Below, one piece after another: positions 13,164 to 29,432 of a stretch of 32,000 nucleotides of DNA. Every line of letters starts with the position of its first letter. Positions within the stretch are counted from its first letter, which is position 1. The notes under the pieces are model-generated. The model saw only the letters and a list, made by a program, of their open reading frames with translations. It was not told where the DNA came from and did not search any database. The DNA is from Legionella bononiensis (lineage in GTDB: Bacteria; Pseudomonadota; Gammaproteobacteria; Legionellales; Legionellaceae): assembly GCF_016786415.1 (NCBI RefSeq), contig NZ_JADWVN010000013.1. One strand, written 5' to 3'. Both the position numbers and the translations under genes were made by a program.

Positions 13164-13185
13164 ATTTTTTCTTTTAGGACGTGTG

Positions 13186-14724
13186 ATGACGAAATTGTGT
13201 TTTCTTTTGGGCGACCAGCTGAGTGAGTCAATTTCCTCACTCTCTGCAATCGACAAACATGGTGATCTGGTTTTTCTTTGCGAAGTGATGGAAGAGGCCA
13301 CTTATGTGGCACATCATCCTAAAAAAATTGCTTTTTTATTTTCAGCGATGCGTCATTTTGCAAAACGATTAAAAGAGCTTGGCTATCGAGTACGCTACAC
13401 TAAATACGATGAGGCCTGTAATACTGGTTGCTTTGAGGAGGAACTGTGTCGGGTACTAGATGAAGAAAAAATTTCGGAGGTACATGTAACTCACCCCGGC
13501 GAGTGGCGTGTTCTGCAAAAAATGGAAACATTAAAAAAACACGTGTCGATCCCCCTCATCATTCATGAAGATACTCGATTTTTATGTTCTATAGACGAGT
13601 TTAACTATTGGGCACAAGATAAAAAGCAATTACGCATGGAGTTCTTTTACCGAATGATGCGTCAAAAGCATCATCTTCTCATGGATAACCGAGGGAAGCC
13701 TGTAGGCGGGGCTTGGAACTATGATGAACAAAATCGAAAAAATGCCAATCACATTGAAACATTTCCTAATCGTTTTGTACATCCCGTAGATGAACTGACT
13801 TCAGAAGTTTTAAGCTTGGTAGAAAAAGAGTTTTTCAATCATTTTGGCCAATTGCAGCCGTTTAATTTTGCGGTGACTCGGGAGCAGGCTCTTTGTGAAG
13901 CCAGCTATTTTATAGAGCATTGTTTAGTGTATTTTGGTGATTACCAAGACGCCATGCGCTCCAATGAGGTTAATTTATATCACTCCAAATTATCTTTTTA
14001 TCTGAATGCAGGGCTTTTATTGCCTTTAGAGTTATGCCGGATGGCTGAGGACGCTTTTGAGCAGAAACTGGCACCTTTGAATGCTGTCGAAGGATTTATT
14101 CGTCAAATTTTAGGATGGCGAGAGTATGTGCGTGGTATCTATTGGCTTTTGATGCCTGCATACAGAGACAGAAACTATTTAAATGCTTCCAGACCTTTGC
14201 CTTCACTATTTTGGGGAAAAGAAACGCAGATGTTTTGTATGAAAGAAGTCGTTCGACAGACGCAAGTTGAAGCTTACTCCCATCATATTCAGCGTTTGAT
14301 GATTACCGGTAATTTTGCGCTCTTGGCAGGCATTAATCCTAAAGAAGTATGTGAGTGGTATTTGGCTGTCTATGCCGATGCCTACGAATGGGTCGAATTG
14401 CCAAATACATTAGGGATGGCGCTGTATGCTGATGGTGGCGTTATGGCAAGTAAGCCCTATGCTGCAAGTGGGAAATACATTCAAAAAATGAGCAATTTTT
14501 GTAAATCATGTACTTATAATCCCGGAGAACTGTTGGGTGAACAAGCATGTCCATTTAATTCCCTTTACTGGAATTTTATAGGTCAACACCAAGAGTTACT
14601 TAAAAATAATCCGCGTCTTCATTATGCTTATCTCAATTGGGATAAAATGGACCAGGAAAAGAAAAAGGCTATTTTCGTTAAAGCAACTGAAGTGTTGACC
14701 TCATTAGATGCAGGGCAATTATAA
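13186..14724 (+). CDS. Cryptochrome/photolyase-family protein of the FeS-BCP / (6-4) photolyase type (COG3046-like)
   Basis: 'LCFLLGDQL' N-terminus and 'GWREYVRGIYW'. Four Cys (C352, C440, C443, C456 in ORF-track numbering) have the C...CxxC-x12-C spacing of the [4Fe-4S] site in Agrobacterium PhrB and Rhodobacter CryB. Confidence 0.85.
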   Translation: MTKLCFLLGDQLSESISSLSAIDKHGDLVFLCEVMEEATYVAHHPKKIAFLFSAMRHFAKRLKELGYRVRYTKYDEACNTGCFEEELCRVLDEEKISEVHVTHPGEWRVLQKMETLKKHVSIPLIIHEDTRFLCSIDEFNYWAQDKKQLRMEFFYRMMRQKHHLLMDNRGKPVGGAWNYDEQNRKNANHIETFPNRFVHPVDELTSEVLSLVEKEFFNHFGQLQPFNFAVTREQALCEASYFIEHCLVYFGDYQDAMRSNEVNLYHSKLSFYLNAGLLLPLELCRMAEDAFEQKLAPLNAVEGFIRQILGWREYVRGIYWLLMPAYRDRNYLNASRPLPSLFWGKETQMFCMKEVVRQTQVEAYSHHIQRLMITGNFALLAGINPKEVCEWYLAVYADAYEWVELPNTLGMALYADGGVMASKPYAASGKYIQKMSNFCKSCTYNPGELLGEQACPFNSLYWNFIGQHQELLKNNPRLHYAYLNWDKMDQEKKKAIFVKATEVLTSLDAGQL

Positions 14725-14899
14725 AGTCATGTCTGCAACTTAAATGAAAATAAACCTGAGCAGCGATTATTAATGCATAAAATGTTATTTTGTCTTCGGT
14801 CATATAAAAATAACATGTGATTTTCAGCCTGTTCAAAGACATCCTTAAAACTAACTATGCTACAATTATATTGATTCATTCATACGATTGAGGCCCTTT

Positions 14900-16270
14900 A
14901 TGCTTGTAGAAATTCTGTCTCGCGTTCAATTTGGTTTTAGTATTGGTTTTCATATTTTGTTTCCCACTTTAAATCTTGGTCTTGCGGTATTTCTTGTGAT
15001 TATGGAAGCAACCTGGTTGAAAACAAAAAATCCAATTTATCTCGAGATATGCAAGCTTTGGACTAAAATTTTCGCTTTGACTTTTGGAATGGGGGTAGTG
15101 TCTGGAATTGTTTTAGCCTATCAAATTGGCACTAATTTTGGACCCTTCATCACTCAGTTTGGCAACGTCCTGGGAGCTTTATTTGCTTACGAAACCTTGA
15201 CCGCTTTTTTTCTCGAAGCCGGTTTTTTAGGCGTGATGCTCTTTGGTTGGAAAAGAGTTCCACCGACGCTTCATTTTATTGCCACTCTTTTGGTAACTAT
15301 AGGTACCACCATCTCCGCATTTTGGATCATGTCAGCTAATTCTTGGATGCAAACTCCGAGTGGTTATCAGTTGATTGATGGAAAATATATTGTTGATAGC
15401 TGGTGGGCCGTCGTATTTAATCCGAGTTTCATTCCGCGTTTTATTCACATGCTATTAGCCTCTTATGTGACGACTTGTTTTGTCATCATGGCTGTTTCTG
15501 GATATTATTTGTTAAGAGAGAAGTTTTACGCGATTGCCCAAAAATGCTTATCGTTTAGTTTATGGGCAGCGTTGATTTTAGTTCCCTTGCAAATAGGTGT
15601 TGGTGATGTAGTGGGTGTCAATGTGCATCACTATCAACCTTTAAAAACGGCGGCAATGGAAGGAGTTTGGCAGACCCAAAAAGGGGCGCCCCTTGTATTA
15701 TTTGCTATTCCATCGCAAGAAAAGCAAAAAAACTTTTATGAAATTGCAGTGCCAAAACTTGCAAGCCTGATTAATACTCATGAATGGGATGGTGAACTTA
15801 TCGGCTTGAGTTCAGTTAACCCTGTTGATCAACCGCGCATGCTCCCCGTATTTTTTTCATTCCGCATTATGGTAGGTATTGGACTTTTGATGTTATTTAC
15901 GGCCATAGTAGGGGTTTCTCTGTATTTAAAAGGCACTCTTTTTAAACATCGCTGGTTTCATCGTTGGTGCCTTGCGATGGCGCCATTAGGATTTATTGCC
16001 AGTATTGCGGGATGGTTAACTGCTGAAATTGGCCGACAACCTTGGGTGGTCTATAATCTTTTGAAAACAAAGGATGCGGTATCTTCGGTAGGCTATGAAG
16101 AGGTGTTGATTTCCTTTACTTTGCTTATTCTCGCTTATGGGGTTGTTTTTGGGTTTTATCTCTATTATTTACTCAAGCTCATTGCTCATGGACCAGAGAC
16201 ATTAACAGAAGATGAAATCGAGCATCATGCATTCCAGTACATGACTGACAATCCTAAGGAGAAAAAATAA
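14900..16270 (+). CDS. cydA: Cytochrome bd-type ubiquinol oxidase subunit I (short Q-loop, CIO-like)
   Basis: 'GFHILFPT' (heme b558 His), 'FIHMLLASY', 'GWLTAEIGRQPWVVY'. The start is taken at ATG 14900 rather than TTG 14888. Confidence 0.9.
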   Translation: MLVEILSRVQFGFSIGFHILFPTLNLGLAVFLVIMEATWLKTKNPIYLEICKLWTKIFALTFGMGVVSGIVLAYQIGTNFGPFITQFGNVLGALFAYETLTAFFLEAGFLGVMLFGWKRVPPTLHFIATLLVTIGTTISAFWIMSANSWMQTPSGYQLIDGKYIVDSWWAVVFNPSFIPRFIHMLLASYVTTCFVIMAVSGYYLLREKFYAIAQKCLSFSLWAALILVPLQIGVGDVVGVNVHHYQPLKTAAMEGVWQTQKGAPLVLFAIPSQEKQKNFYEIAVPKLASLINTHEWDGELIGLSSVNPVDQPRMLPVFFSFRIMVGIGLLMLFTAIVGVSLYLKGTLFKHRWFHRWCLAMAPLGFIASIAGWLTAEIGRQPWVVYNLLKTKDAVSSVGYEEVLISFTLLILAYGVVFGFYLYYLLKLIAHGPETLTEDEIEHHAFQYMTDNPKEKK

Positions 16271-17259
16271 TGTTGCCCTTTATTTTTGCGGTACTTCTTG
16301 GGTTTATTATTTTAATGTATGTTATTCTGGATGGTTTTGATTTAGGCATTGGCATTCTCTTTCCTTTTACTTCCAATGAAAAGGAACGTGATACCATGAT
16401 GAATTCCATAGCGCCAGTTTGGGATGGCAATGAAACCTGGCTCGTTTTTGGTGGTGCGATGCTTTATGGCGCATTCCCTAAAGTGTATGGAGTTCTATTG
16501 CCCATTCTTTATATGCCCATCATGCTGATGTTGATTGCGTTAATATTTCGCGGTGTAAGCTTTGAGTTTCGCTTCAAGGCAAAGAAATCAAAACCCATCT
16601 GGAATTGGTCCTTTTCAATCAGCTCGGTTGCTGCAACATTCTTTCAAGGTGTTATTCTAGGAGCGTTTGTGCAGGGTTTTTCTATCGATGAATCGTCAAT
16701 GACCATTAATAATCCCGATTGGTTAACTCCTTTTAGTCTTTCTACAGGGATTGCTTTGGTCTGTGGATATGCACTTTTAGGGGCGACTTGGATGATTATC
16801 AAAAGCTCTGGAAGGCTTCAACGTACAATGATTCATCACGCACGAGGGTTGTTAGTATTAGTCAGTTTATTTTTGATTTTTGTGAGCATTTGGACCCCGT
16901 TACATAGTGATGAAATTTTTCATCGTTGGTATAGTTTCCCTAACGTGTTTTTATTAAGTCCGCTACCTTTGCTTGCGGCAGTTGCTGTTTATCAAATTTG
17001 GAACAGCTTAAATGCAGCAAGTGAATACAAGCCATTCATTTACAGTATCGTTTTATTTTTGTGTGCTTATATAGGAATAGGGATTAGCGTTTATCCTTAT
17101 TTAATTCCGCATCAGGTGACTATTTGGGAAGCTGCAGCCCCTGATTCAACGCTGATTTTTATTCTGGTTGGTGTAGTCATTATGCTTCCTATACTTATAG
17201 CTTATACGCTTTATGCCTATCATCTATTTCGAGGAAAATCGTCAGGTCACTATCATTAG
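16270..17259 (+). CDS. cydB: Cytochrome bd-type ubiquinol oxidase subunit II
   Basis: 'ILDGFDLGIGIL', 'APVWDGNETWLV' and 'FRGVSFEFR' are characteristic CydB motifs. The start overlaps the cydA stop (TAATG). Confidence 0.9.
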   Translation: MLPFIFAVLLGFIILMYVILDGFDLGIGILFPFTSNEKERDTMMNSIAPVWDGNETWLVFGGAMLYGAFPKVYGVLLPILYMPIMLMLIALIFRGVSFEFRFKAKKSKPIWNWSFSISSVAATFFQGVILGAFVQGFSIDESSMTINNPDWLTPFSLSTGIALVCGYALLGATWMIIKSSGRLQRTMIHHARGLLVLVSLFLIFVSIWTPLHSDEIFHRWYSFPNVFLLSPLPLLAAVAVYQIWNSLNAASEYKPFIYSIVLFLCAYIGIGISVYPYLIPHQVTIWEAAAPDSTLIFILVGVVIMLPILIAYTLYAYHLFRGKSSGHYH

Positions 17260-17303
17260 ACATACTCATTTGAGGTGATTGATTAATACAGTACCAATAA
17301 ATT

Positions 17304-17330
17304 TAAATGCTCCTGTAATGAGAGCATTTA
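17304..17330. terminator. Candidate bidirectional terminator hairpin between convergent cydB and tspO
   Basis: 9-bp stem 'taaatgctc'/'gagcattta' with a 9-nt loop, flanked by A/T-rich sequence on both sides. Confidence 0.45.
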
Positions 17331-17342
17331 TGATTTAGTTCA

Positions 17343-17813
17343 TTAATTCATTAATGCAATGACCACGTTGAGATATGAAGCAAAGACCAGCCAAAGTAGG
17401 TAAGGAGTTAATAACCAGGCAATGGTTTTGTGCGTTTTTTTAGCCTCGATGATTAAGATCAAATTCAAACACGTTAAGCTAACAAGCCAAAGAGCGCTTA
17501 GCATAAACCAGTGTAGCCCAAAAAAAAGTGGCGTCCAGACCCAATTCATCAGCATTTGTAATGCGAAGAGAACTGTAATTTTTTTAGAAGACTCTTGATT
17601 TTGGTTTGTTAAAATCCAGGCAATGAGTGCAAGAAGCACATATAATAAGGTCCAAACGACCGAAAAAACAAACCCGGGAGGAGTTAAGGACGATTTGTTA
17701 AGATGTTCGTACCAGGGATAAATATTCGCCTGAGTGAGTAAACCCAGTAAAAAACCTATGCTTTCAAAAAGCACAATCCAGAATACTAATTTCATTAACT
17801 TATGTAAGCGCAT
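17343..17813 (-). CDS. tspO: TspO/MBR family tryptophan-rich sensory protein
   Basis: 'WYEHLNKSSLTPPGFVFSVVWTLLYVLLA' and the Trp-rich 'NWVWTPLFFGLHW' fit the TspO pattern. The start is set at ATG 17813 (GGAGGA 6 nt upstream) rather than 17855. Confidence 0.85.
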   Translation of the reverse strand: MRLHKLMKLVFWIVLFESIGFLLGLLTQANIYPWYEHLNKSSLTPPGFVFSVVWTLLYVLLALIAWILTNQNQESSKKITVLFALQMLMNWVWTPLFFGLHWFMLSALWLVSLTCLNLILIIEAKKTHKTIAWLLTPYLLWLVFASYLNVVIALMN

Positions 17814-17993
17814 AATCATTCCTCCAAATTGGGGTTCGAGTGGAAGCGAAATCAATAAAATTGATGTCTAAATCATTTTGTTCTTGCACACCAGGAGTGC
17901 AAGAGGTTTCAATCACCCTAATTCCCTGAGCTATCCGTTTGGGGGCGCACGTCTTGTCAGGGAAACTAAAGCCAAAAATCAAAGTATAAGGAC

Positions 17994-19421
17994 TCATGGG
18001 GTATTACTTTTCTTTAATTGACTGTAATATTCCAGGGCCTTAGAACGTGATTCGCTGTGATTAATGATGGGTTTGGGATAATTGATTCTACTATAAATTC
18101 CTGCTGCATTAGAGGATTCCCATGGCGCATGAATTATATCATTATTTAATGCAAGGAGCTCAGGGATCCAACGGCGTATATAAACACCATTGGGGTCAAA
18201 TTTTTGGCTTTGAAGCACTGGATTAAAAATACGAAAATAAGGTGCCGCATCAGCCCCACAACCTGCTACCCATTGCCAACTGGCACTATTATTTGCTAAA
18301 TCAGCATCAACTAAAGTATCTAAAAACCAATCAGCCCCCAATCGCCAATCAATGAATAAGCCTTTGGTGAGAAAGGAGGCGACTATCATTCTTACTCTAT
18401 TGTGCATGTATCCGGTGGCCCATAGCTCCCTCATGCCTGCATCGACGATTGGGTAGCCCGTCATTCCTTTCTGCCAGCATTTTAATAATGACTCATCATT
18501 ATGCCAAGGAAAGGCATCAAACTCTTTTTTAAAGTTATCATAGGGCAAGGAGGGTACATGGTAGAGTAAATAATATGAAAATTCGCGCCAGCCAAGTTCT
18601 GATAAAAAGTGTTCCGCTCCTGCTAAATCACAGTGTGGGTTGAGCTTGGCGTATTCAACGGCTCTTAAAATAGTCCATGGACTGATTTCGCCAAAGTGTA
18701 AATGCGGGGATAGATGTGACGTGGCTTGCTTTTCGGGAATATCCCTATTTATTTTATAACCATTAAGATGGTGCGTAATGAATTCGTGCAGCCGTCGTTG
18801 AGCCCCTTGTTCTCCCGGTGTCCAAAAATCAGGAAATTGTGATGCCCAATCGAGGCGTGGTAGAAGTCTCCACTCGTCAATTTCATCACTCCTTACATCA
18901 ACGGAACCAATAGTATGATTATGGGAAATTAATTGTTCTGGTTGAGGAGTAAGTGCTTGTCGACAGGTTTTCCAATAAGGAGTAAAGACTTTAAAAAAAT
19001 CACCGGTTTTATTACTTATGGTCCAGGGCTCATTCAATAAGCTTCCATTAAAACTAAAGACATCAATCCCATGTTCTTGAAATGTTGCTTTGATTTTTTT
19101 ATCACGCTCAATACTCTTTGGTTCATAGCATCGATTCCAATATATACTGTTAATACCTACAGTGTTGACCAGGTCTGAAATGATCTCTAATGGGGTTCCC
19201 TTGCGTAGAATAAGATTTATTCCATGCTGAGTGACCAGAGCATTATTTAACGTTTTAAGGCTGTGATGAAGCCACCAGGCTTGTGCTTCACCAAGGACAC
19301 TGCTTTTTTCATCTAAAATATAGATTGGAATCACTGTTTCGTTGTTTGTGCAGGCTTCAAAAAATGCAGGATTATCAGCCAATCGTAAATCCTGTCTAAA
19401 CCAAACTAGTGCGGTACTCAT
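17994..19421 (-). CDS. phr: Class I CPD deoxyribodipyrimidine photolyase
   Basis: 'LVWFRQDLRLADNPA', 'LSPHLHFGEIS', 'GWREFSYYLLYH', 'TGYPIVDAGMRELWATGYMHNRVRMIVASFL' and 'ASWQWVAG' are canonical photolyase motifs. Confidence 0.92.
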   Translation of the reverse strand: MSTALVWFRQDLRLADNPAFFEACTNNETVIPIYILDEKSSVLGEAQAWWLHHSLKTLNNALVTQHGINLILRKGTPLEIISDLVNTVGINSIYWNRCYEPKSIERDKKIKATFQEHGIDVFSFNGSLLNEPWTISNKTGDFFKVFTPYWKTCRQALTPQPEQLISHNHTIGSVDVRSDEIDEWRLLPRLDWASQFPDFWTPGEQGAQRRLHEFITHHLNGYKINRDIPEKQATSHLSPHLHFGEISPWTILRAVEYAKLNPHCDLAGAEHFLSELGWREFSYYLLYHVPSLPYDNFKKEFDAFPWHNDESLLKCWQKGMTGYPIVDAGMRELWATGYMHNRVRMIVASFLTKGLFIDWRLGADWFLDTLVDADLANNSASWQWVAGCGADAAPYFRIFNPVLQSQKFDPNGVYIRRWIPELLALNNDIIHAPWESSNAAGIYSRINYPKPIINHSESRSKALEYYSQLKKSNTP

Positions 19422-19428
19422 GTCATCC

Positions 19429-20856
19429 TTATTTACTTTGTTTTGTATAGTGATTTATTCTGTGCGTTGAAGCGAAAAAGCGAGCCCTAGCCTTTAATTC
19501 CTCCAATTGGACTTGAGCATGCAAGGTGTTAAGTTGTACTTGGGTGGTCATTTGTTCGCGTTGATTGACTAAAAATAAAGTACTGTCTCCTTGATGAAAC
19601 TTTTTTGATTCCCCTTGTTGCACCTTTTGCGCCAAACTTAATTCTTTTTTTAATAGGCTGACTTGTCGCCTACTTCTCTTTATGCCAATTAGCATATTGG
19701 AAAATTCATTGTTGAGTTGTTCGTACAAAAATCTCTTTTCAACTCGAACTTGGCGTAACTCGCTTTCTGCTTGAATGAGGTTTCCTTTAGCTTGTCTTTG
19801 CAACAATGGAAATTTAAACGATACACCAACCATTGCCGCTTGTGGAATCAGTAATGGGTAGCCTCCTGTTCCATTTTGTTTAAAGGTGTAGGCGGTAGCA
19901 TCTAATTGAGGTAGTAGCTCGTTACGTGCCTGATTTCGTTTGAGCTTCATCATATTGACATAATGGTTAAGCTTTTTAATCGCTGGATGTTCACTGAGTG
20001 ATGCCTGGGTTCCTGCGATGGTCTTTGAGGTACTGGTCAAGACCGGTAAAGACCGTGCATCAGGAATTAGCGGTTTACCTTTGGAGTCTCGAAAATAAAG
20101 AGATAAATTAACACCTGCTTGTTCAAATATCATTTCACCTTGATTGAGTAGTTGTTCTCGTTGAATGATTTGTTGTAAATTTTCACTGATGGCAAGCTTT
20201 GCCAAATCCCCTTGATTCGCCTGTTGTTCAATAGCGTGTTGACGTTTTTGCGCTAAGTGCAGGAATTGTTTAAATGTGTTTAATTGAAGGCCAGCTTCAA
20301 CCCATTGCCAATAGGCTTTAATCGCTTCTTGGTAAATTTTTAATTTAACCGCTTCAGTATCTTGCTTTTTCATGAGCATCAATTGAGCAGAGGACAGTAA
20401 TCCGGTTCGCTCTTTATCAATTAATCGGTCGCGGAGTAAGGGAAGAGATAATCCGGCTCTATATTCCCCACCGGAGTTTGTTAAATAGTTTTGATAGTAA
20501 ATTGGCCAGTTGCCTTCCCCATTGCGATAGCCTGCAAAAAGCTTCACGCCATTATAGAGCGTGGGGATGGTTAGTTGTGTATCGCCATAATTATTAATAT
20601 AACCCCCTGCAGGTTGCGAGCGAGTACTAGCCTCCAATGCAGGGTCAAATTGTCCTTTTGCATTAATCAACGCACCACTGGCTTTTGCTACTTCAAGACG
20701 TGCGATTTTTACCTGAGGATAATGAGAGTCGATACTTTGCAGTACCTGCATTAAACTTAATTCTGGTGTTTTTGGAGAGGCATAGGATGCTGAATACCCC
20801 AATAGGGCGCTTACTCCGATAGGTATAATGAATAGCCCTCGTAACACGCTTTTCAT
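19429..20856 (-). CDS. TolC-family outer membrane efflux protein
   Basis: 475 aa. Signal peptide 'LFIIPIGVSALLGYSASYA'. Two coiled-coil-rich halves typical of outer membrane factor proteins. ATGA overlap with the upstream HlyD gene. Confidence 0.85.
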   Translation of the reverse strand: MKSVLRGLFIIPIGVSALLGYSASYASPKTPELSLMQVLQSIDSHYPQVKIARLEVAKASGALINAKGQFDPALEASTRSQPAGGYINNYGDTQLTIPTLYNGVKLFAGYRNGEGNWPIYYQNYLTNSGGEYRAGLSLPLLRDRLIDKERTGLLSSAQLMLMKKQDTEAVKLKIYQEAIKAYWQWVEAGLQLNTFKQFLHLAQKRQHAIEQQANQGDLAKLAISENLQQIIQREQLLNQGEMIFEQAGVNLSLYFRDSKGKPLIPDARSLPVLTSTSKTIAGTQASLSEHPAIKKLNHYVNMMKLKRNQARNELLPQLDATAYTFKQNGTGGYPLLIPQAAMVGVSFKFPLLQRQAKGNLIQAESELRQVRVEKRFLYEQLNNEFSNMLIGIKRSRRQVSLLKKELSLAQKVQQGESKKFHQGDSTLFLVNQREQMTTQVQLNTLHAQVQLEELKARARFFASTHRINHYTKQSK

Positions 20857-21839
20857 GAGCTCGCCTTTTGTGCCAAGCTTTCAGGAGGAAAGCCGTTAAA
20901 CTGACGCCATAGCTCATACCACAAGGGTACCTCTCCTAATTGCACCCAGCCATGTACGCGTACTCCTTGCCTTAAAAATGTCGGATCCGGCCAGGGTTCA
21001 TCAGGGACAATCACGGCGCGAAATAACCCCATGCCATTATCTGTAGGATCGATAAAGGCTACTTTCCCACCAAAGGTACCTACAGCGATTTGTGGCCAAC
21101 CCCTAAATTGAATTGCAGGCCATCCTTCAAATTGAAGGCGTGCTTTTTGATTCAAATGAACGAATGGAATGTCATTGCCATCAATCCAAAGCGCTACAGC
21201 TCTTGATTCGGTTACAGGTATAATCTCCGCTAATATTTCTCCTTCTTTAACTACTACGCTTTGTTGTCCCGTTAGGCGTTTAAAAATCACTCCTGGAACA
21301 TGGGCTTTGATCAGTTGGGTTTGCTGTCTGGCAATGCGAACATCGATACTGATTTTATCAATATTGGCTTGGGCTAGTTCGTTTTGGTATTTGGCGTATT
21401 CAATTTGAGCTAATTCGTATTGACGTTTTGAGTTGATGCCTTGTTGGTATAAGTTCTTTTGGCGTTCCACATTGGCTTTTCCTGCAATTAATGATTGCTG
21501 TGCGGCTTCGATGCGAAGCAAAATGGCCTTTTGTTCCAGCTCCAATCGTTTGAGTAACTCTGGGTCATTGTCGGTAATCTCTACAATCGGGTCGCCCGCT
21601 TTAACCCGGACGCCTTCGTCAACGTACCATTTTTTAATTCTGCCATAAATAGGTGAATTAACGGTATGCAGTCGCTCAGTGGGTGAAAAAGCAATGACTT
21701 TGCCACTTCCAAGGGCAAATTGTTGCCAAGGGGTAAAGCTCAAAAATACAATTAAAATCAGGAGTACTAAAAAAATAATCTTAGCAATTTTGCGTGGATT
21801 GGGTAATTTGCCAATCATCTGATAGGCGTGTAGCTTCAT
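20853..21839 (-). CDS. HlyD-family periplasmic adaptor (membrane fusion protein), short coiled-coil
   Basis: N-terminal TM anchor, lipoyl-like 'GRIKKWYVDEGVRVKAGDPIVEI', a ~90-aa coiled coil and a beta-barrel C-terminus. ATGA overlaps on both sides. Confidence 0.85.
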   Translation of the reverse strand: MKLHAYQMIGKLPNPRKIAKIIFLVLLILIVFLSFTPWQQFALGSGKVIAFSPTERLHTVNSPIYGRIKKWYVDEGVRVKAGDPIVEITDNDPELLKRLELEQKAILLRIEAAQQSLIAGKANVERQKNLYQQGINSKRQYELAQIEYAKYQNELAQANIDKISIDVRIARQQTQLIKAHVPGVIFKRLTGQQSVVVKEGEILAEIIPVTESRAVALWIDGNDIPFVHLNQKARLQFEGWPAIQFRGWPQIAVGTFGGKVAFIDPTDNGMGLFRAVIVPDEPWPDPTFLRQGVRVHGWVQLGEVPLWYELWRQFNGFPPESLAQKASS

Positions 21840-23416
21840 GAGAGCACCAAGCGGTTAGATAGTGGAATAAGATTTGGGTATTGAGTGATTGTAATTAAAA
21901 GCGTCTTATTGAGCGTTGCTAAATGGAGAAGCAGTAACTCAATGTCTTTTGTGGACAGTCTATCAAAGATGCGATCAATTATAATAAGCTGCGGTTTTGC
22001 AAGTATCGCACGAATCACCATGAGTTGTATGAGCTCGAGCTCAGTGAACACTTGCTCCCAATCATAAATCATGCTTTTTAGACCATTAGGTTGGCTCATG
22101 ATTTTATCCATCAGCCCGAAAGATTTGAACAGCTCTTTTAATTGCTGTATGGAAAAGGCGGGTTGATTGAGGCGTAGATTGTCATAAATGCTGCCAGAAA
22201 ACCATTCTATATCTCTAAGTAACAGGGTGTGGTCACGAAGAGAACGCCTGTATTCTTCATTACACAGGGTCTCATTGATATATACTGTGAGGTCAGTACT
22301 GTTTTTAAAACCCAAAATAAAATCGGTACATGAATCTTGTTTTTGTGTTTCATTCACGCAAATAACCAAAGGAGTTTCTGGGGTGCTCGATGCTTTTTCT
22401 TGATTTTGAGTCACTAGCGTGATGTTTTTTATGGGAAGAATCAGTTCACTTAACTCTGTGTTGATGGATTCAGTTGGGAGATTTAATACCATGTCAATTT
22501 TGTGCTCTGAGGCAACTAAGTCGTAATAATTCTCCAAAAGAACACTAAAGCGTTTAAAAGCGTAGATTAACGCGCCAAGCACAATCTCTGCTGCAACCAG
22601 CTGACCTAAACTCAATTGGTTATTAATCACGAGATAGCCTCCCAAACCGAGTAAGAGACTACTGGCGATTGCCGAGAGGAGATAAAAACCAATCTGATGT
22701 TTAATGAGTTGTTTAAAATGCATATTGCGTGCTTTTAAAAATGAAATTAATCGCTTATCCGTTTGTTGGGTCGCATAGTGATGATAACGATTAAAGCGAA
22801 ATAAAAAACGATTGGTAAGCAATTCCTCTAGCCACGCGCCTATTTGATGCTTTTCAGTGCATTCTTTTTCAGCGCTTGCTAGTCCTTTACGATAAGGTAA
22901 AAATACAATCAAAATAATACTTAATATAATGAATCCATCAAATACGAGAAAGAGTGGATGATAAAAAAGAAGCAAGATTAAGCCAAAAAACAGTTGCAAA
23001 CTTAAATTCACTCCATAAAGTAAAAGACTTGCTAAAGCCTTGTTTACAGTGACCACTTCGAAAAAACGATTAACAAGCTCTGGCCCATGATGTGAAGAAA
23101 AATTATCTAATGATAAATGAGTAAATTGTCGAGTTAGGCTAAGACTTATTTTAACCATTAATTTCTGTTGAATGACTTCGATGATAATACTTTGCCATAT
23201 ATTTAAAGCTCCAAGCGCAATCATTAATACAAGGACCATGATACTTAGAGTTACCACCGGTTGAAGTAATTTACCAAAGGCAATCAGATTAACTAATGTT
23301 TGAGCTGCAATAGGAATACTTAAGGTAAGTAGACTCACAATTACGCTTATCATGACTATTGATGCAATGGTGGCTTTATCTAATACCTCAACAATCGAAT
23401 TCATTTCTTGTTTCAT
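21836..23416 (-). CDS. ABC-exporter-like protein: type-I exporter transmembrane domain fused to a degenerate (motif-less) nucleotide-binding domain
   Basis: aa 1-310 look like an ABC_membrane 6-TM domain. aa ~325-526 align colinearly with an NBD, but Walker A, Q-loop, LSGGQ, the Walker B glutamate and the H-loop are all substituted (see finding). GAGGA RBS. Confidence 0.8.
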   Translation of the reverse strand: MKQEMNSIVEVLDKATIASIVMISVIVSLLTLSIPIAAQTLVNLIAFGKLLQPVVTLSIMVLVLMIALGALNIWQSIIIEVIQQKLMVKISLSLTRQFTHLSLDNFSSHHGPELVNRFFEVVTVNKALASLLLYGVNLSLQLFFGLILLLFYHPLFLVFDGFIILSIILIVFLPYRKGLASAEKECTEKHQIGAWLEELLTNRFLFRFNRYHHYATQQTDKRLISFLKARNMHFKQLIKHQIGFYLLSAIASSLLLGLGGYLVINNQLSLGQLVAAEIVLGALIYAFKRFSVLLENYYDLVASEHKIDMVLNLPTESINTELSELILPIKNITLVTQNQEKASSTPETPLVICVNETQKQDSCTDFILGFKNSTDLTVYINETLCNEEYRRSLRDHTLLLRDIEWFSGSIYDNLRLNQPAFSIQQLKELFKSFGLMDKIMSQPNGLKSMIYDWEQVFTELELIQLMVIRAILAKPQLIIIDRIFDRLSTKDIELLLLHLATLNKTLLITITQYPNLIPLSNRLVLS

Positions 23417-23437
23417 CAGAGTCCTCGAATCCTTTAC

Positions 23438-24289
23438 TTAATGTTTTAATTTATCCATGATAAAAAACTCCAGAGAGTCAATTGCTTTATTCGCCACCTC
23501 CTTTTTAATTAACGACACATGGATGTCTTTTAAAGAGGGGAGGAAATAATCATCCAGTTTATCCAGATAATTAGGAATCATACTGCGTTGTATGGCTGTA
23601 ATTCCCAAGCCTGCTCGAACTGCAGCCATTTTACCCGCGTAACTTGGGCTACTAAATGCCAATCGCCATTTTAAGTGATGTTTATTGAGAGACTCGATAA
23701 CGTTGCCGCGATAAACGCAAGGAGTAGGGGAAAGAATCAGTGGAATGGTGGATTTTTCATTAAGAATGGGGAGCAATTCTTTTTTCCCCACCCATTCCAC
23801 GGGTTCATTCCATACATTAACTCCTTCAGTTATTTGCTTTTTTTCAGTGGTTTTTATCAGGATTAAATCAAATTCGTCTTGATGAAATCGCTCAATTAAA
23901 TTCAGGGTTAAATCACACTCTACATTGAGCATGATTCGGGGGTGAAGTCTTGAAAACTCAACCAAGACCTCGGAAAGCATCATGGAGGCAAAGTCTTCTG
24001 GCAAACCAAAACGAAGTTCGCCTTGAAGCTCTGGCGTTTTAAAACGGTCAAGGGATTCTCGATGCAGCTCATAAATTCGTTTAGCATAACCTAAAAAAAG
24101 CTCCCCATCTGGGGTTAAGGACAATTCTCGTCCACGAGTAATTAACTGTTTTTCAATCAAATTTTCAAGTTTAGCAATTTGCTGACTTATTGCTGATTGA
24201 GTTCGGCCCACTCGCGCGGCTGCTTTAGTGAAGCTTTGAGTTTCCGCCACCGCTAAAAAGCATTGTAAGGTTACTGTATCTAGTGACAT
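23438..24289 (-). CDS. LysR family transcriptional regulator
   Basis: N-terminal HTH 'LQCFLAVAETQSFTKAAARVGRTQSAISQQIAKLE' plus a substrate-binding domain of typical length. Divergent from dabB and 21 nt upstream of the ABC-like gene. Confidence 0.9.
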   Translation of the reverse strand: MSLDTVTLQCFLAVAETQSFTKAAARVGRTQSAISQQIAKLENLIEKQLITRGRELSLTPDGELFLGYAKRIYELHRESLDRFKTPELQGELRFGLPEDFASMMLSEVLVEFSRLHPRIMLNVECDLTLNLIERFHQDEFDLILIKTTEKKQITEGVNVWNEPVEWVGKKELLPILNEKSTIPLILSPTPCVYRGNVIESLNKHHLKWRLAFSSPSYAGKMAAVRAGLGITAIQRSMIPNYLDKLDDYFLPSLKDIHVSLIKKEVANKAIDSLEFFIMDKLKH

Positions 24290-24302
24290 TAGAATTCCTA
24301 AT
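24288..24302. promoter_or_regulatory. LysR-type T-N11-A box (ATTAG-N5-CTAAT) in the LysR/dabB divergent region
   Basis: Perfect 5-N5-5 inverted repeat 'attagaattcctaat'. The T-N11-A core is 24289-24301. It overlaps the LysR start codon (24287-24289). Confidence 0.45.
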
Positions 24303-24377
24303 AGAAAACATAATTATTTTTAATTTCACTTATATCAGCATATCTAATATATTTCCATTGTAGCAAAACAATTTCTA

Positions 24378-25907
24378 ATGGGGAATGATGTGAATACAAT
24401 AGTCCTGATTTTTTTATTTATGATGTTAGCCTGCCCGATTATAGCGCTTGTCTTTAACTGCTTTTTAATATCCAGACCAATTATAGCAGCGCGCTGTGCG
24501 GGATATTGTATCGGAATTGGGTTTTTGATGGGGGTAGGGCTACTTTCTTATTTATCTTTAGCACAAAATCCTACAGTGTACTTATTAATCAGTCTTAATA
24601 CCCTGAGCCTTTTATTATGCAGTTTAGTGTTACTGGTCAGTTTTGTTGTGCATCGATTTTCACTAAGGTACATGCAGGGAGATAGACTCTACAGACGGTT
24701 TTTTCTACTTTTGTCGCTACTGACATTAGCCGCGTTACTCATGGTTCTTGCTGATAATTTATTTTTATTTTGGGGGGCTTGGTCGTTCTCAAATGTATTC
24801 CTAGTACTCTTGATGGTGCATAAGAAAGAATGGATAGCCTCCAAAAACTCCGGGCTGTTGGCCTTTTATACGTTTGCATCGGGAAGTGCCTGCTTATTAG
24901 TAGCCTTTATTCTTTTAAGTTTAGGTTACTCAATGAACTCTATTGAGGTGTTGACAAAGCTATCCCACCCGGTCCACGGGTCATTACTTACTTTATCTAT
25001 GGGTCTTATCTTGGTTGCAGCATTAACTCAGTCTGGTATAGTCCCTTTTCATCGTTGGCTTATCAGTTCGTTGAACTCCCCAACCCCAGTCTCTGCTTTA
25101 ATGCACGCAGGTCTTGTTAACGGTGGAGGAATTCTCCTCGTTAAATTTGCACCACTGATGATGCTTTATCCAGGTTTGCTCACTGTACTGTTTCTAGTCG
25201 GTTCTATATCCGCCTTACTGGGTACTGTTTGGAAGTTGATGCAGCATGATATAAAAAAAATGTTAGCTTGCTCTACTATGGCGCAAATGGGTTTTATGAT
25301 GATGCAATGTGGTGTGGGTTTATTTGCTGCGGCCATCGCTCATCTTTGTTGGCATGGATTATTCAAAGCCTATCTCTTTTTAAGTTCAGGCTCTGCGGTG
25401 AAACAAAAAAAATCAATGGTTAATGCTTCGCAAACCACCCCAATGATGCTCATCATCTCTCTTGTTGGTGGCATGGTCGCGATGACTTCCTTTGCTTTTG
25501 CCACTAATAAGATGATTTCCTTGTATGAGGCCAGTGCCTTTGTCTTGTTCTTTGCCTTCATAGGTGGATCGCAACTCATGCTCACTTGGGTTCGTAGTCA
25601 CCAAAGCGCTTTTAGTTTGGTATCAGGGCTAGTACTCGCGTTGTTTTCTGGTTTGATGTATGGCGCAAGCATTCAACTGATTCAGTGGTTGATTCCGAAT
25701 ATATCGATACTACAGGCACCCCAATTATCGTTAATCCATTGGACCGTAATGATTTTATTTGGTGCCTTATGGGCAGTATTTAATCTTGGAATACATCAAA
25801 GAATCGGCCAATCAAAACTAGGCTTTTGGCTTTACATGACCTTATTTAATTCAAGCCAGCCTTCCAAAACAACGGTTACTGCTTTACGAAACGATTACAA
25901 CTACTAA
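24378..25907 (+). CDS. dabB: DabB/MpsA: NuoL/MrpA-like proton-conducting membrane subunit of a DAB inorganic-carbon pump
   Basis: 509 aa and polytopic. 'PFHRWLISSLNSPTPVSALMHAGLVNGGGILLVKF' matches the PF00361 (NADH-quinone oxidoreductase chain L/M/N) core. It lies directly upstream of a DUF2309 gene. GTG 24390 is an alternative start. Confidence 0.85.
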   Translation: MGNDVNTIVLIFLFMMLACPIIALVFNCFLISRPIIAARCAGYCIGIGFLMGVGLLSYLSLAQNPTVYLLISLNTLSLLLCSLVLLVSFVVHRFSLRYMQGDRLYRRFFLLLSLLTLAALLMVLADNLFLFWGAWSFSNVFLVLLMVHKKEWIASKNSGLLAFYTFASGSACLLVAFILLSLGYSMNSIEVLTKLSHPVHGSLLTLSMGLILVAALTQSGIVPFHRWLISSLNSPTPVSALMHAGLVNGGGILLVKFAPLMMLYPGLLTVLFLVGSISALLGTVWKLMQHDIKKMLACSTMAQMGFMMMQCGVGLFAAAIAHLCWHGLFKAYLFLSSGSAVKQKKSMVNASQTTPMMLIISLVGGMVAMTSFAFATNKMISLYEASAFVLFFAFIGGSQLMLTWVRSHQSAFSLVSGLVLALFSGLMYGASIQLIQWLIPNISILQAPQLSLIHWTVMILFGALWAVFNLGIHQRIGQSKLGFWLYMTLFNSSQPSKTTVTALRNDYNY

Positions 25908-25925
25908 ACGTATGAAGGGGTATTT

Positions 25926-28214
25926 ATGACTACTGCAAAAATATTATCGAAACAAGATAGAGATAATAACGCAATTAAAAAATCAGAAATGGTCTATTAT
26001 CCGGCAAAAAATAAAGACCTTGAACTACAGGCTTTGGTGCACAATGCCGCCAAATGTATCGCGCCAGTCTGGCCGCTTGAAACTTTTATCGCTTGCAATC
26101 CATTACAAGGGTTTGAAGCACAATCGTTTGAAGAGGCATTAGCTCAAGGTGCTTTTAGGCGCCAAAGAGCCGAGCGTAACCTGCAACTCGAAGAGGTTAA
26201 TCTGCAAATGATTAAATGGTGCGGCGGCTTTTTTGATGCAGGACAAGGCAGCATTTATATGCCCAATCGTGAGAAAGGTTTTTATTTTGGATTCTTAAAA
26301 TTAGCTTATTTTGATAAGCAATTACACCACAATAAAAAACAAGCAAAAGAATTTCTGCAACAATTACCTGAATCGGCAGAAGAGGCACTTAAAATGTGTC
26401 TGCAAATACTTCATGTCCCTCAAGGTCAAGAAGAAGCCTTTCTTTCCCAAACACTTCGCTATTTACCGGGCTGGGCAGGGTTTGTTAAATGGAAGACGGA
26501 TTGGCAGAATTCAAAGAAACCAGAAGAAACGCAAGTCACTCTCACAGATTTTCTGGCAGTGCGCTTGGTGTTAACTTGCATCCTTTGGCCTGATGCGGCG
26601 AAGGAAAAAAAAAGCATCGACGATGGCTCTTTGGTTAAAAAAGTGCTGACGAAATTAAAAAGTAATGAGGATTCCTATCGGCAAAAGTTATTAAGTCTGC
26701 TTTTGCCAGAGGTAAAGAAAGGAGAAGATCATCTTCCGCGCAGAAATGCTCAGTTGGTTTTTTGTATTGATGTGCGTTCCGAGCCATTTCGCCGTGCTAT
26801 AGAGTCTTTAGGATCTTATGAAACCTTTGGTTTTGCCGGATTTTTTGGACTTCCTGTGCGTATCGATGAATTTGATACCAATAAAAATAAAGAGTGTTGT
26901 CCGGTCTTGTTAAAACCAAAATATGCGATTAAAGAAATGTCGGCTGCTGCAAATAATGACGATTTTGAACGTTATCAGCGAGGAAAGGCATTCATTAATC
27001 GTTGTAAAAGCCTTTATACGCAACTCAAGAACAATGTGTCGACCCCTTTTGCCTTAGTGGAGTCTTTAGGGCTTTGGTGTGGTTTGAATATGATTTTAAA
27101 ATCGTTATCACCGGAATTAAGTCATCATTCAGTATCAGCCATCACGGGTTGGCTGAAACCTGCGATTCCGACCAAAGTAGCTTATGAATTAAGTGAAACG
27201 GATGCGGAGCAAGGTTTATCATTACACGAGCAGATTAGTTATGCTGAAACGGTATTGCGCCTTATGGGGCTGACTTCAGGTTTTGCAAAACTCATTATTC
27301 TCTGTGGTCATGGAAGTACTACCGAAAACAATCCTTATGCTTCAGCTCTGGATTGCGGCGCCTGCGGTGGGAATCATGGAGGTATAAATGCGCGATTATT
27401 GGCGTCCATTCTTAATAAACCTGAAGTTCGACGAGGCCTGGAAGACTGTGGCATGCACATCCCCTTGGATACGGTATTTTACGGAGCACAACATAATACA
27501 ACTACGGATTCAGTCGAACTTTACACACAAGATGTAGCCAAACCTATCTACCCTGAGCTTATAAGCCAACTGCAAAACGATTTAAAGGAAGCAAGGCTTA
27601 TAACCAACCAAGAGCGGAGAGTACAATTGCAGAGTTGCTCTTCTCATAAAGACATCACAAGAAGAAGCATGGACTGGTCTGAAACACGACCTGAATGGGG
27701 CTTGGCACGCAATGCTGCCTTTATTGTTGCTCCTCGGCACCTAACAAAAAATATCTCTCTTGATGGTCGCTGTTTTTTGCATTCTTATCGGTATGAGCAA
27801 GACAGTGAAGGCACATTTCTCGAGACCATTCTGACAGCGCCCATGGTGGTGGCTGAATGGATAAATACCCAATATTTATTTTCTACTTTAGATAATGTTG
27901 CCTTTGGAAGTGGAAGCAAAATTACCCACAATGTGGTTGGAACCATTGGCGTGATGCAGGGGAATGGAAGTGATCTCATGCATGGTCTTCCTCTGCAATC
28001 GGTCATGAGTTCTGATATGGAACCCTATCATGAGCCACAGCGTTTATTGACCCTTGTTTATGCCCCTAAAGAGATGGTTTCTCAAGTGATTGAAAAACAC
28101 TCCATCTTAAAAACCTTATTTTTTAACCAATGGGTGCACTTGATAGTTATCGACCCGAAGAATCAAGGAGTTTATCAACTCACCCAATCGGGTGAGTGGA
28201 TTTTAGTTGAATAA
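25926..28214 (+). CDS. dabA: DabA/MpsB: DUF2309 family, beta-carbonic-anhydrase-like subunit of the DAB inorganic-carbon pump
   Basis: 762 aa. 'PLETFIACNPLQG', 'FCIDVRSEPFRR' (CxDxR; C280, D282) and 'CGHGSTTENNPYASALDCGACGG' (H462, C477) are hallmark DUF2309 motifs. GAAGGGG RBS. Confidence 0.9.
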   Translation: MTTAKILSKQDRDNNAIKKSEMVYYPAKNKDLELQALVHNAAKCIAPVWPLETFIACNPLQGFEAQSFEEALAQGAFRRQRAERNLQLEEVNLQMIKWCGGFFDAGQGSIYMPNREKGFYFGFLKLAYFDKQLHHNKKQAKEFLQQLPESAEEALKMCLQILHVPQGQEEAFLSQTLRYLPGWAGFVKWKTDWQNSKKPEETQVTLTDFLAVRLVLTCILWPDAAKEKKSIDDGSLVKKVLTKLKSNEDSYRQKLLSLLLPEVKKGEDHLPRRNAQLVFCIDVRSEPFRRAIESLGSYETFGFAGFFGLPVRIDEFDTNKNKECCPVLLKPKYAIKEMSAAANNDDFERYQRGKAFINRCKSLYTQLKNNVSTPFALVESLGLWCGLNMILKSLSPELSHHSVSAITGWLKPAIPTKVAYELSETDAEQGLSLHEQISYAETVLRLMGLTSGFAKLIILCGHGSTTENNPYASALDCGACGGNHGGINARLLASILNKPEVRRGLEDCGMHIPLDTVFYGAQHNTTTDSVELYTQDVAKPIYPELISQLQNDLKEARLITNQERRVQLQSCSSHKDITRRSMDWSETRPEWGLARNAAFIVAPRHLTKNISLDGRCFLHSYRYEQDSEGTFLETILTAPMVVAEWINTQYLFSTLDNVAFGSGSKITHNVVGTIGVMQGNGSDLMHGLPLQSVMSSDMEPYHEPQRLLTLVYAPKEMVSQVIEKHSILKTLFFNQWVHLIVIDPKNQGVYQLTQSGEWILVE

Positions 28215-28230
28215 TAGTGAGGAGAAAAAA

Positions 28231-28596
28231 ATGAGTGTGATTAAAGTTCAAGAACGAAAAGATATTGGGATTAACCTGCATCCAATGAAAAAAATTGAGA
28301 TTATTGTTGCTGGAGAACATGAGCACCTGATAACGTCTATGATGGACGAGGCATCAGTGACAGGGTATACATTGATACGAAATGTTTCTGGAAAAGGGCA
28401 TCATGGTTTTCATGAAGGAAAAATGATGTTTAATGACAAATCCTCATTAGTCATGTTTATCGCCGTTGCACCTGAAGAAGTGATCGTAACCTTGGCTTTA
28501 GGCATGAAAACCTTGTTTCAGAACGAGTCTGGGGTGATGTTTGTTTCCGATGTTTCGGTTGCAAGGCTTGATTATTTTCACATTATGAATACTTAA
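28231..28596 (+). CDS. PII-like (GlnB-fold) small signalling protein
   Basis: 'MKKIEIIVAGEHEHLITSMMDEASVTGYTLIRNVSGKGHHG...' has the beta-alpha-beta PII layout with a T-loop-like 'SGKGHHGFHEG'. GAGGAG RBS 6 nt before ATG 28231. The ORF-track TTG at 28207 overlaps the dabA stop. Confidence 0.7.
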   Translation: MSVIKVQERKDIGINLHPMKKIEIIVAGEHEHLITSMMDEASVTGYTLIRNVSGKGHHGFHEGKMMFNDKSSLVMFIAVAPEEVIVTLALGMKTLFQNESGVMFVSDVSVARLDYFHIMNT

Positions 28597-28598
28597 TC

Positions 28599-29432
28599 AT
28601 GTACTATAAAAATCAACATGTTTTATTAGCATCCAAGCATGAAAAGGAACAAGCAATAGCTGAACCTTTTATGAAAAGGCTGTCGTGCACTTTAAATGTG
28701 CACGATTTTGATACCGATCAGTTTGGAACGTTTACGGGAGAGATTGCACGGACTCTGAGTCCCTATGAAACCTGTCTCTTAAAGGCTAAAACAGCGGCAA
28801 AACGTTATAACTATAGGCTTGCTGTAGCCTCTGAGGGAAGTTTTGGGCCTCATCCCGCATTTCCGTTTGTACCAAGCGATCATGAGTTGATGGTGTTTAT
28901 TGATAGAGAGCATGACTGGATTATTGCAGAGCAACTAGTAAGTCAAAAAACAAATTATGCGATGTTAACGGTTAACAAGAATACAGATATTGATGCTTTT
29001 CTTAAACAAGTTCATTTTCCGACTCACGCACTCATTGTACAAACAAGTTCTGATAATCGTGTTGTGGCTAAGGGCATTAATAATTTAGAACACTTGACCC
29101 ACCATCTCGCTCTTGGTTTTAAAAATGAGAAAGAACTTCTTCTAGCAACGGATATGCGAGCTATGATGAATCCTACTCGAATGACAGTGATTGGTGAGTT
29201 GGCTGATAAACTAACGCAACGAATTGCTAACCTTTGTGTTCGATGTGAGTGTCCAGGTTTTGGATTCAAGTCAACTAAAGGCACTTTACCTTGCTCGCTT
29301 TGTGGTTCCCCAACTTCATTATATGAGGAAGAAGTGTGGGGTTGTATTGCCTGTCAACATCAAGAGTACAAAATGAGAAAAGATGGTTTGTTAAAAGCCG
29401 ATCCAGCTTATTGTGATTATTGTAACCCTTAA
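28599..29432 (+). CDS. Uncharacterised protein with C-terminal double zinc ribbon (4 x CxxC)
   Basis: 277 aa. The start is 2 nt after the PII-like stop. Candidate conserved blocks 'DTDQFGTFTGE', 'ASEGSFGPHP' and 'ATDMRAMMNPTR'. C-terminus 'CVRCEC...CSLC...CIAC...CDYC'. Confidence 0.8.
   Translation: MYYKNQHVLLASKHEKEQAIAEPFMKRLSCTLNVHDFDTDQFGTFTGEIARTLSPYETCLLKAKTAAKRYNYRLAVASEGSFGPHPAFPFVPSDHELMVFIDREHDWIIAEQLVSQKTNYAMLTVNKNTDIDAFLKQVHFPTHALIVQTSSDNRVVAKGINNLEHLTHHLALGFKNEKELLLATDMRAMMNPTRMTVIGELADKLTQRIANLCVRCECPGFGFKSTKGTLPCSLCGSPTSLYEEEVWGCIACQHQEYKMRKDGLLKADPAYCDYCNP

Follow-up and report, generated by a model that had tools for sequence, protein, structure and literature searches.

A predicted tripartite exporter of Legionella with an ABC-exporter-fold subunit that lacks the ATPase motifs

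The window analysed here, a stretch of 32,000 nucleotides from Legionella bononiensis, carries on its minus strand (19429-23416) a three-gene operon whose products are predicted to form a tripartite, envelope-spanning exporter that is selectively maintained. The complex is composed of a dimer of an inner-membrane protein with the ABC-exporter fold, a periplasmic adaptor of the HlyD/MacA type, and a TolC-type channel. The inner-membrane protein lacks the catalytic motifs of ABC ATPases and, judging from their sequences, the Legionella pump and its relatives probably do not run on ATP hydrolysis. Our best reading, to which we give slightly less than even confidence, is that of an ATP-independent, probably ion-gradient-coupled small-molecule efflux pump that would retain its pseudo-ATPase domain as a structural clamp. 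The finding is real, conserved, and surprising to a specialist; the energy source and the substrate are putative.

Architecture of the operon and fold of the inner-membrane subunit

An earlier interpretation of the window made without database searches (the sequence-only reading) had recognized a three-component operon of ABC-fold, membrane fusion protein, and outer-membrane factor genes, and the open reading frames and their Pfam domains agree with it. The components, their domains, and the junctions between the genes are:

21836-23416, minus strand: ABC-exporter-fold inner-membrane protein, 526 aa (open reading frame listing, Pfam)
22472-23416, minus strand: transmembrane domain (TMD), residues 1-315, six long helices (PF00664, AlphaFold2 helices)
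21839-22471, minus strand: pseudo-nucleotide-binding domain (pseudo-NBD), residues 316-526 (colinearity with NBDs, model; no PF00005 match)
20853-21839, minus strand: periplasmic adaptor (membrane fusion protein), 328 aa (PF13437, PF13533, PF16576)
19429-20856, minus strand: outer-membrane factor, TolC-like, 475 aa, N-terminal signal-like sequence (two PF02321 (OEP) repeats, E=4e-26)
21836-21839, minus strand: ATGA stop/start overlap of the ABC-fold and adaptor genes, ctcATGAagc (direct reading)
20853-20856, minus strand: ATGA stop/start overlap of the adaptor and outer-membrane factor genes, ctcATGAaaa (direct reading)

The protein search returned an entry from the same species that is 100% identical to the ABC-fold protein. 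Both ATGA overlaps had been described before and could be read at the positions listed; the stoichiometric complex deduced from them does not follow from the overlaps alone, as they indicate co-translation and alone are no proof of a fixed stoichiometry. The adaptor, in which Pfam detects HlyD_3 and Biotin_lipoyl_2 domains, contains one N-terminal membrane anchor preceded by a cytoplasmic tail of only about 18 residues. Its best sequence matches in the PDB are HlyD (8dck_C), MacA, and EmrA.

The sole Pfam match of the 526-residue protein is PF00664, which covers residues 20-276 (E=3.9e-10). Together with the helices of the AlphaFold2 model and the structural matches to HlyB, PCAT1, and TM287/288, it bears out the normal type I ABC-exporter TMD that had been proposed. 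PF00005 could not be matched to the protein even at E<=1. Full-length NCBIfam models nevertheless cross the C-terminus (PrtD, residues 14-522; CydC, residues 378-508, E=1.4e-5), and PDB chains are colinear through it (HlyB, residues 20-508; isolated NBDs, residues 390-499, E ~1e-10). Because these models and chains align colinearly, the last approximately 210 residues are homologous to an NBD, by sequence. The profile comparison suggested by the sequence-only reading thus succeeded for PF00664 and failed for PF00005, and the NBD colinearity that it had claimed for the C-terminal 200 or so residues was established through the NCBIfam and PDB alignments.

The AlphaFold2 model, calculated from 77 family sequences, has a mean pLDDT of 90.2 and a pTM of 0.81; the C-terminal blocks mostly reach 83-96 and display an alpha/beta pattern. 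The best Foldseek match of the model in the PDB is HlyB (8dck_A), with a TMq of 0.87 over 531 columns, and PCAT1, TM287/288, and PrtD are also matched. The model shows that the cytoplasmic domain of the inner-membrane subunit is predicted to retain the NBD fold. The protein therefore has the two folds of the ABC superfamily, a TMD and an NBD-like domain, and fails every test for its catalytic motifs.

The positions of the former ATP-site motifs are:

22325-22348, minus strand: former Walker A (P-loop), TQKQDSCT, residues 357-364 (family-alignment columns of GxxGxGK[ST])
22199-22225, minus strand: former Q-loop, LLLRDIEWF, Arg in place of Gln (family alignment)
22034-22048, minus strand: former LSGGQ signature, FTELE (aligned to HlyB LSGGQ and the family motif PLSxGQ)
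21971-21988, minus strand: Walker B remnant, LIIIDR, Asp kept and catalytic Glu replaced by Arg (family and PDB alignment)
21878-21889, minus strand: former H-loop, ITQY, Gln in place of His (family and PDB alignment)

The string PLVICVNETQKQDSCTDF at 22319-22372, previously given as the remnant of Walker A, was confirmed, and the aligned columns TQKQDSCT lie inside it. The earlier assignments of the Q-loop, signature, and H-loop stand at the positions above, as does the replacement of the catalytic Glu next to the retained Walker B Asp, for which the range of 21965-21991 was slightly too wide. A D-loop-like Asp (D485) follows the Walker B remnant, and these two aspartates are the only ATP-site residues that survive. 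The scaffold around the motifs, said to be kept, is indeed kept according to the motif alignments and the conservation in the Legionella clade; directly after the former Q-loop is the nearly invariant segment WFxGxIYDNL. Searches with the regular expressions G..G.GK[ST] and SGG gave zero matches in the protein and in 115 full-length Legionella-type homologues, and no intact Walker A or signature is located elsewhere in the protein.

In ABC proteins, ATP is sandwiched between two NBDs, of which one contributes Walker A and the other its signature. Because the Legionella subunit has neither, it follows from the established ABC mechanism that no consensus ATP site can be formed in a homodimer, as had been pointed out, or in a heterodimer with any partner. 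It is very improbable that nucleotide is bound and hydrolysed through non-canonical residues instead. The conserved Walker B and D-loop aspartates and the intact fold of the model are consistent with such a cryptic ATPase, but four elements are lost together, namely the signature, the catalytic base, the H-loop His, and the Q-loop Gln. Furthermore, the P-loop segment lacks Gly and Lys and is hypervariable among close relatives (residues 353-366, top-residue frequency 0.3-0.6 in the Legionella clade), which a conserved phosphate-binding site would not allow.

Maintenance in Legionella and motif loss across the family

The protein search listed 120 close homologues, all from Legionella or Legionellaceae, of which the 115 full-length ones are 54-100% identical to the L. 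bononiensis protein. They span the genus, their reading frames are full-length and intact, and their precomputed Pfam domains, where recorded, consist of PF00664 only. Codon-level dN/dS ratios were calculated against three close species (L. quateirensis, a brunensis-like assembly, and L. parisiensis) at a dS of 0.2-0.8, leaving out the adaptor of the brunensis-like locus; more distant Legionella (57-64% identity) were unusable since dS is saturated. The resulting omega values are:

Membrane domain: 0.03-0.05
Pseudo-NBD: 0.14-0.17
Outer-membrane factor: 0.10-0.13
Adaptor: 0.03

These values indicate clear purifying selection on the pseudo-NBD, relaxed about 3-4-fold relative to the TMD. That the C-terminal domain evolves faster by this factor could be taken as a sign of a decaying, non-functional relic, as could the lack of an infection-screen fitness phenotype of the L. 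pneumophila orthologue assigned by synteny. The relic explanation is effectively refuted by the 115 intact homologues across the genus, an omega far under 1, the confident structural model, and the conservation of the operon structure and its overlaps. Strain-specific decay was rejected as well, as 115/115 homologues are free of the motifs, and the proposal of a conserved pseudo-ATPase rather than random decay is upheld.

The adaptor is the most conserved component of the module, with 76-83% identity across Legionella species compared to 57-64% for the ABC protein, in which the TMD is the best-conserved part. Within the pseudo-NBD, residues conserved to at least 90% in the Legionella clade are WFxGxIYDNL (405-414), F457 and E461, D481 (the Walker B Asp), and D485 of the D-loop. 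By analogy to canonical NBDs, they would form the groove for the coupling helix and the NBD-NBD interface.

The Legionella proteins belong to a family with members in many phyla. An exhaustive HMMER search of 1.84 billion representatives identified 1,154 cluster representatives at E<=1e-30; the family contains at least 1,100 clusters at 50% identity that have the three-gene module in common, and canonical HlyB scores far weaker than its members. Relatives turned up in a genome scan among Planctomycetota, Acidobacteriota, Myxococcota, Bdellovibrionota, and Leptospira, as well as among methanotrophs, Francisellaceae, Candidatus Kuenenia, and Candidatus Uabimicrobium. In nearly all of 82 related loci the order is ABC-fold gene, adaptor, outer-membrane factor, often with 4-nt overlaps, and the adaptor is the best conserved. 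A motif census of 229 sequences, comprising the nearest 150 representatives and the genome loci, gave the following counts:

Walker A intact: 141/229 (62%)
Walker B Asp: 220/229
Catalytic Glu: 57/229 (25%); Gly in 87, Arg in 30
H-loop His: ~34/229
Q-loop Arg: 165/229
Walker A, Asp-Glu, and His together: 25/229 (11%)

The signature is at best PLSxGQ. Large planctomycete clades keep GxxGxGKS but have LLLIDG and ATGR at the Walker B and H-loop positions, and are predicted to bind ATP without hydrolysing it. Walker A has clearly been lost many times independently, judging from about 49 state changes by parsimony on a neighbour-joining tree of the membrane domain, which is a rough number. Walker A is still present in P0129, P0131, and P0146, the short-form relatives nearest to the Legionella clade. 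The Legionella protein is the extreme member, or end-point, of a multi-phylum family in which the loss of hydrolytic residues is the rule and in which, going by the census, ATP hydrolysis is dispensable. The whole family may be homodimeric ABC-fold proteins, wired to an adaptor and a TolC-like channel, that have given up ATP hydrolysis and are driven by ion gradients or in another ATP-independent way. Their NBDs would be pseudoenzymes, and their members would range from canonical ones through hydrolysis-dead binders to the non-binders of Legionella. We put this extension to the family forward as a possibility, and tentatively.

Conservation in the family is inverted relative to ordinary ABC proteins, with the TMD more conserved than the NBD. 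Residues E80, K189, G259, G271, L273, and E277 are invariant in 229/229 sequences, and K126, R230, Y152, H153, and K306 are nearly so; the charged TMD residues in this set are E80, K126, K189, R230, E277, and K306. One of them is a candidate for coupling to ions:

22586-22588, minus strand: codon of Glu277, in hydrophobic TM6, motif LGQLVAAE; candidate ion-coupling residue

A pattern containing E277 served to retrieve the 80 genome loci; Glu277 is invariant also in the 77/77 HMMER-derived representatives. The residue lies within the hydrophobic segment 268-294, and HlyB has Asn at this position.

Long-form members of the family (~700-770 aa; P0139, P0144, P0152, P0162, P0166, P0167, P0202, P0215, P0217, and others) contain an additional N-terminal domain of approximately 150-190 residues. 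It has no significant match in Pfam or in a profile search of PDB sequences, and a C39-like fold is a guess. A His-rich, often His/Gly-rich, linker precedes TM1 in 14/79 long forms. Taken with the ArsR-family proteins encoded next to some of the modules, the linkers hint at metal handling in part of the family.

Energy source, cargo, and comparison with known exporters

In the mechanism that we propose, the pump would no longer be powered by ATP hydrolysis. The pseudo-NBD would act as a structural clamp that joins the two half-transporters through the D-loop, the Walker B Asp, and the former signature region, and would dock onto the coupling helices through the conserved WFxGxIYDNL segment. 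Alternating access of the membrane domain may be driven by an ion gradient, most likely of protons, through the family-invariant charged residues, with Glu277 buried in TM6 as the main ion-coupling candidate. The cargo would most likely be a small molecule or an ion, not a secreted protein, exported under the control of a local regulator, which is of the LysR family in L. bononiensis.

There are precedents for parts of this mechanism. The truncated membrane domain of LmrA is reported to carry out proton-coupled transport. The best precedent for the proposed energization is SbmA/BacA (SLiPT), a proton-driven, ATP-free secondary transporter with a membrane domain of the ABC-exporter type (PMC13316013). 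However, SbmA is an importer that has no NBD and functions outside a tripartite complex with an adaptor and outer-membrane factor, whereas the Legionella protein contains an NBD-like domain; SbmA_BacA gave no match to it in the Pfam scan. EmrAB-TolC and RND pumps resemble the proposed way of working in being tripartite, using the proton-motive force, and having local regulators, and the Legionella adaptor also matches EmrA. Their inner-membrane components have MFS or RND folds, in contrast to the ABC exporter fold found here.

Several observations weigh against an ATP-independent, ion-coupled pump. Among the sampled relatives, 62% have Walker A and about 11% a full set of catalytic residues, so that the binding of nucleotide, and for some members its hydrolysis, is still of importance in part of the family; the Legionella clade may differ in its way of working from the Walker A-bearing relatives. 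Proton coupling is proposed from the invariant charged residues and from analogy, and the charges could form structural salt bridges or substrate sites instead. The position of E277 in the membrane is deduced from helix boundaries and hydropathy. Transposon mutants of the L. pneumophila orthologue assigned by synteny have no clear fitness defect in macrophages or mice.

The missing phenotype would also suit a complex that does not pump at all, in which the ABC-fold subunit is a scaffold or gate of a regulated passive conduit, an envelope tether, or a signalling device without energy coupling. CFTR, an ABC protein turned channel, is a parallel. All energy-transducing motifs are gone, and conservation is highest in the adaptor and on the periplasmic side of the TMD (LLQP, FYHP, GGxLV...LGQLVAAE), which is consistent with docking or gating. 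Nevertheless, the coupling-helix residues N116, F118, and F119 and the NBD groove are strongly conserved, suggesting that conformational coupling is still used, and an invariant, buried Glu such as Glu277 is found more typically in ion-coupled transporters. In addition, the stress-type regulators near the module suggest inducible efflux. We regard a non-pumping complex as rather unlikely.

The regulators were identified by clustering all other open reading frames of the 82 related loci. In addition to the LysR of Legionella, NhaR-like LysR proteins are encoded beside the module in 10 loci, ArsR-family proteins directly upstream of it in 10 loci, and small MarR-type proteins in 7 loci. Such a regulator-rich setting is typical of an inducible efflux pump, not of a dedicated protein secretion system. 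A linked cargo and a partner ATPase were rejected as candidates, as the clustering returned only regulators and scattered, unrelated ABC genes. In most of seven loci from planctomycetes and relatives (L010, L012, L019, L025, L036, L045, L062), a small protein of ~107-159 residues is encoded ~400-900 bp upstream of the ABC-fold gene; the L045 copy matches Pfam S30AE (ribosome hibernation factor-like), and the L012 copy has no Pfam match.

It is improbable that energy is supplied in trans, by a canonical ABC half-transporter encoded elsewhere that forms a heterodimer with the Legionella subunit, or by a separate recruited ATPase. Many ABC exporters are heterodimers in which one site is degenerate (PMC7756269), and canonical ABC genes occur within 6 kb of the module in 8 of the 82 loci. 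These genes are at scattered positions and of unrelated MacB- or LolD-like types. No second ABC half-transporter gene is present in the operon, as noted previously, and none is conserved within 6 kb of the related loci. The Legionella protein has its fold in common with the heterodimeric exporters TM287/288, TmrAB, and BmrCD and with CFTR and SUR, and its lost catalytic Glu and non-consensus signature resemble degenerate sites (PMC7756269). However, heterodimeric exporters keep one consensus hydrolytic site, and the degenerate one still binds ATP, whereas the Legionella subunit lacks both halves. In the geometry of the NBD sandwich, each composite site would miss one half, and a trans-acting partner is a weaker explanation because none can complete a consensus site. 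A separate ATPase would need the docking site at the coupling helices, which in the model is already filled by the pseudo-NBD.

The HlyB-HlyD-TolC and LssB-LssD type I secretion systems (T1SS) have the architecture and gene order of the Legionella system (ABC-fold protein, membrane fusion protein, outer-membrane factor). We consider it quite improbable that the Legionella system likewise secretes a protein or peptide, encoded at an unlinked site, with energy from, for example, folding of the substrate outside the cell or the proton-motive force. The closest relatives of the inner-membrane protein in sequence and structure are T1SS and PCAT ABC proteins (LssB, HlyB, PrtD, PCAT1); HlyB, LssB, and PrtD are its best NCBIfam similarities, HlyB its best structural match, and HlyD the best PDB match of the adaptor. 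In long-form relatives, the N-terminal ~150 residues are placed where HlyB and PCATs have a C39 or C39-like domain, but are without a detectable sequence match to support this.

The Legionella system differs from T1SS in several ways. Its ABC-fold protein is without Walker A, the signature, the catalytic Glu, the H-loop His, and the Q-loop Gln, and neither a C39 nor a C39-like domain is present in it; the adaptor is short, with a minimal cytoplasmic part in place of the long cytoplasmic N-terminus of HlyD. The curated T1SS models score far below their cut-offs (TIGR03375, 70.5 of 693 bits; TIGR01846, 57.6 of 726; TIGR01842, 38.6 of 510; TIGR01843, 53.1 of 209). The ABC protein, membrane fusion protein, and outer-membrane factor are encoded together, and a linked substrate is missing, which leaves room for an unlinked cargo. 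The absence of a C39 domain and of an adjacent RTX or GG-leader substrate had been reported: Pfam detects no C39, and the neighbouring genes encode LysR, photolyase, TspO, and DabAB. No cargo-like gene is conserved near the 82 loci.

MacAB-TolC and the Lit transporter (lpg2922-2925) of L. pneumophila are likewise ABC-type efflux systems of three parts, in which the adaptor is short and MacA-like, and the L. bononiensis adaptor also matches MacA. MacB and LitI have the four-helix MacB fold, a periplasmic domain, and a canonical ATPase (PMC11559062), in contrast to the six-helix exporter fold without ATPase motifs in L. bononiensis. The Lit transporter was rejected as a candidate for the system described here, since it is MacB-like, has a canonical ATPase, and is encoded at a different locus (PMC11559062). 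The exporters covered in reviews on degenerate ABC sites (PMC7756269) and on tripartite systems all retain one active site. The literature searched on degenerate or pseudo-NBDs, ATP-independent ABC exporters, and Legionella T1SS and efflux yielded no description of this system, in agreement with the previous statement that no characterized T1SS-like or MacAB-like system was known to work in this way.

Gene neighbourhood and the L. pneumophila orthologue

Around the exporter operon, the window contains:

23438-24289, minus strand: LysR-family regulator (PF00126 and PF03466)
17994-19421, minus strand: photolyase
17800-17997, minus strand: 65-aa open reading frame
17343-17855, minus strand: TspO
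17330-17304: terminator-like hairpin after the TspO gene, ending the photolyase-TspO string
24378-29432, plus strand: operon of DabB (proton-pumping subunit-like), DabA (DUF2309), P-II, and DUF6671, divergent from the LysR gene
13183-17259, plus strand: photolyase-related protein (DPRP family) and cytochrome bd oxidase subunits I and II, identified via the syntenic L. quateirensis locus

According to the open reading frame listing and direct reading, the minus-strand string runs from LysR through the ABC-fold, adaptor, and outer-membrane factor genes to the photolyase, the 65-aa open reading frame, and TspO. The LysR gene is co-directional with the exporter genes, 21 nt upstream of them, and divergent from the DabB gene; every Legionella locus examined has it in this position upstream of the exporter. 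The divergent layout of DabBA-PII-DUF6671 and LysR-exporter is conserved in L. quateirensis, L. parisiensis, L. pneumophila, and L. steigerwaltii, and the target of LysR may be the CO2-uptake operon, the exporter, or both. A promoter scan of 17000-24600 gave fewer promoter-like sites than shuffled sequence.

The photolyase gene begins 7 nt after the outer-membrane factor gene, and the genes that trail the exporter are separated by at most 7 nt or overlap. In L. parisiensis, and by annotation in L. pneumophila (lpg0228), the exporter is followed by an amino-acid permease, not a photolyase; the photolyase/TspO light/stress module is therefore a lineage-specific addition. In the brunensis-like locus L084 (Logan assembly SRR3187985), DabA and DabB are fragmented, the predicted adaptor gene encodes only 256 aa, and there is no photolyase. 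The fragmentation could be an assembly or frameshift error, or real gene decay.

The L. pneumophila orthologue is probably lpg0224-0226, assigned by synteny and annotation, with lpg0223 (LysR), lpg0222 (DabB), and lpg0221 (DabA) as neighbours. No main-text mention of lpg0223-0226 was found in the literature searched. In an InSeq supplement, transposon mutants are viable, and fitness hits were recorded in 0/5 cases for lpg0224 and 1/8 for lpg0226 (PMC11559062). Members of the family are labelled "ABC transporter ATP-binding protein" in several database entries, or as a "toxin secretion" transporter; the "ATP-binding" label is not supported by their sequences. The lpg0224-0226 genes would thus encode a core-genome efflux system under misleading labels, and the module is common, and unstudied, in Planctomycetota, Acidobacteriota, Myxococcota, Bdellovibrionota, and Leptospira.

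What defines ABC transporters is that ATP drives the dimerization of their NBDs, and to our knowledge the degenerate sites described so far are always paired with one working site. If the proposed mechanism is true, energy sources other than ATP can power the membrane fold of ABC exporters in natural systems, and there would be a direct way to approach the long-standing question of whether the membrane domains of ABC proteins can be secondary transporters. With its natural gradation of motif loss, the family could serve to separate the contributions of each NBD motif to binding, hydrolysis, dimerization, and coupling. Under the proposed mechanism, the family would represent a natural series of a primary transporter becoming a secondary one.

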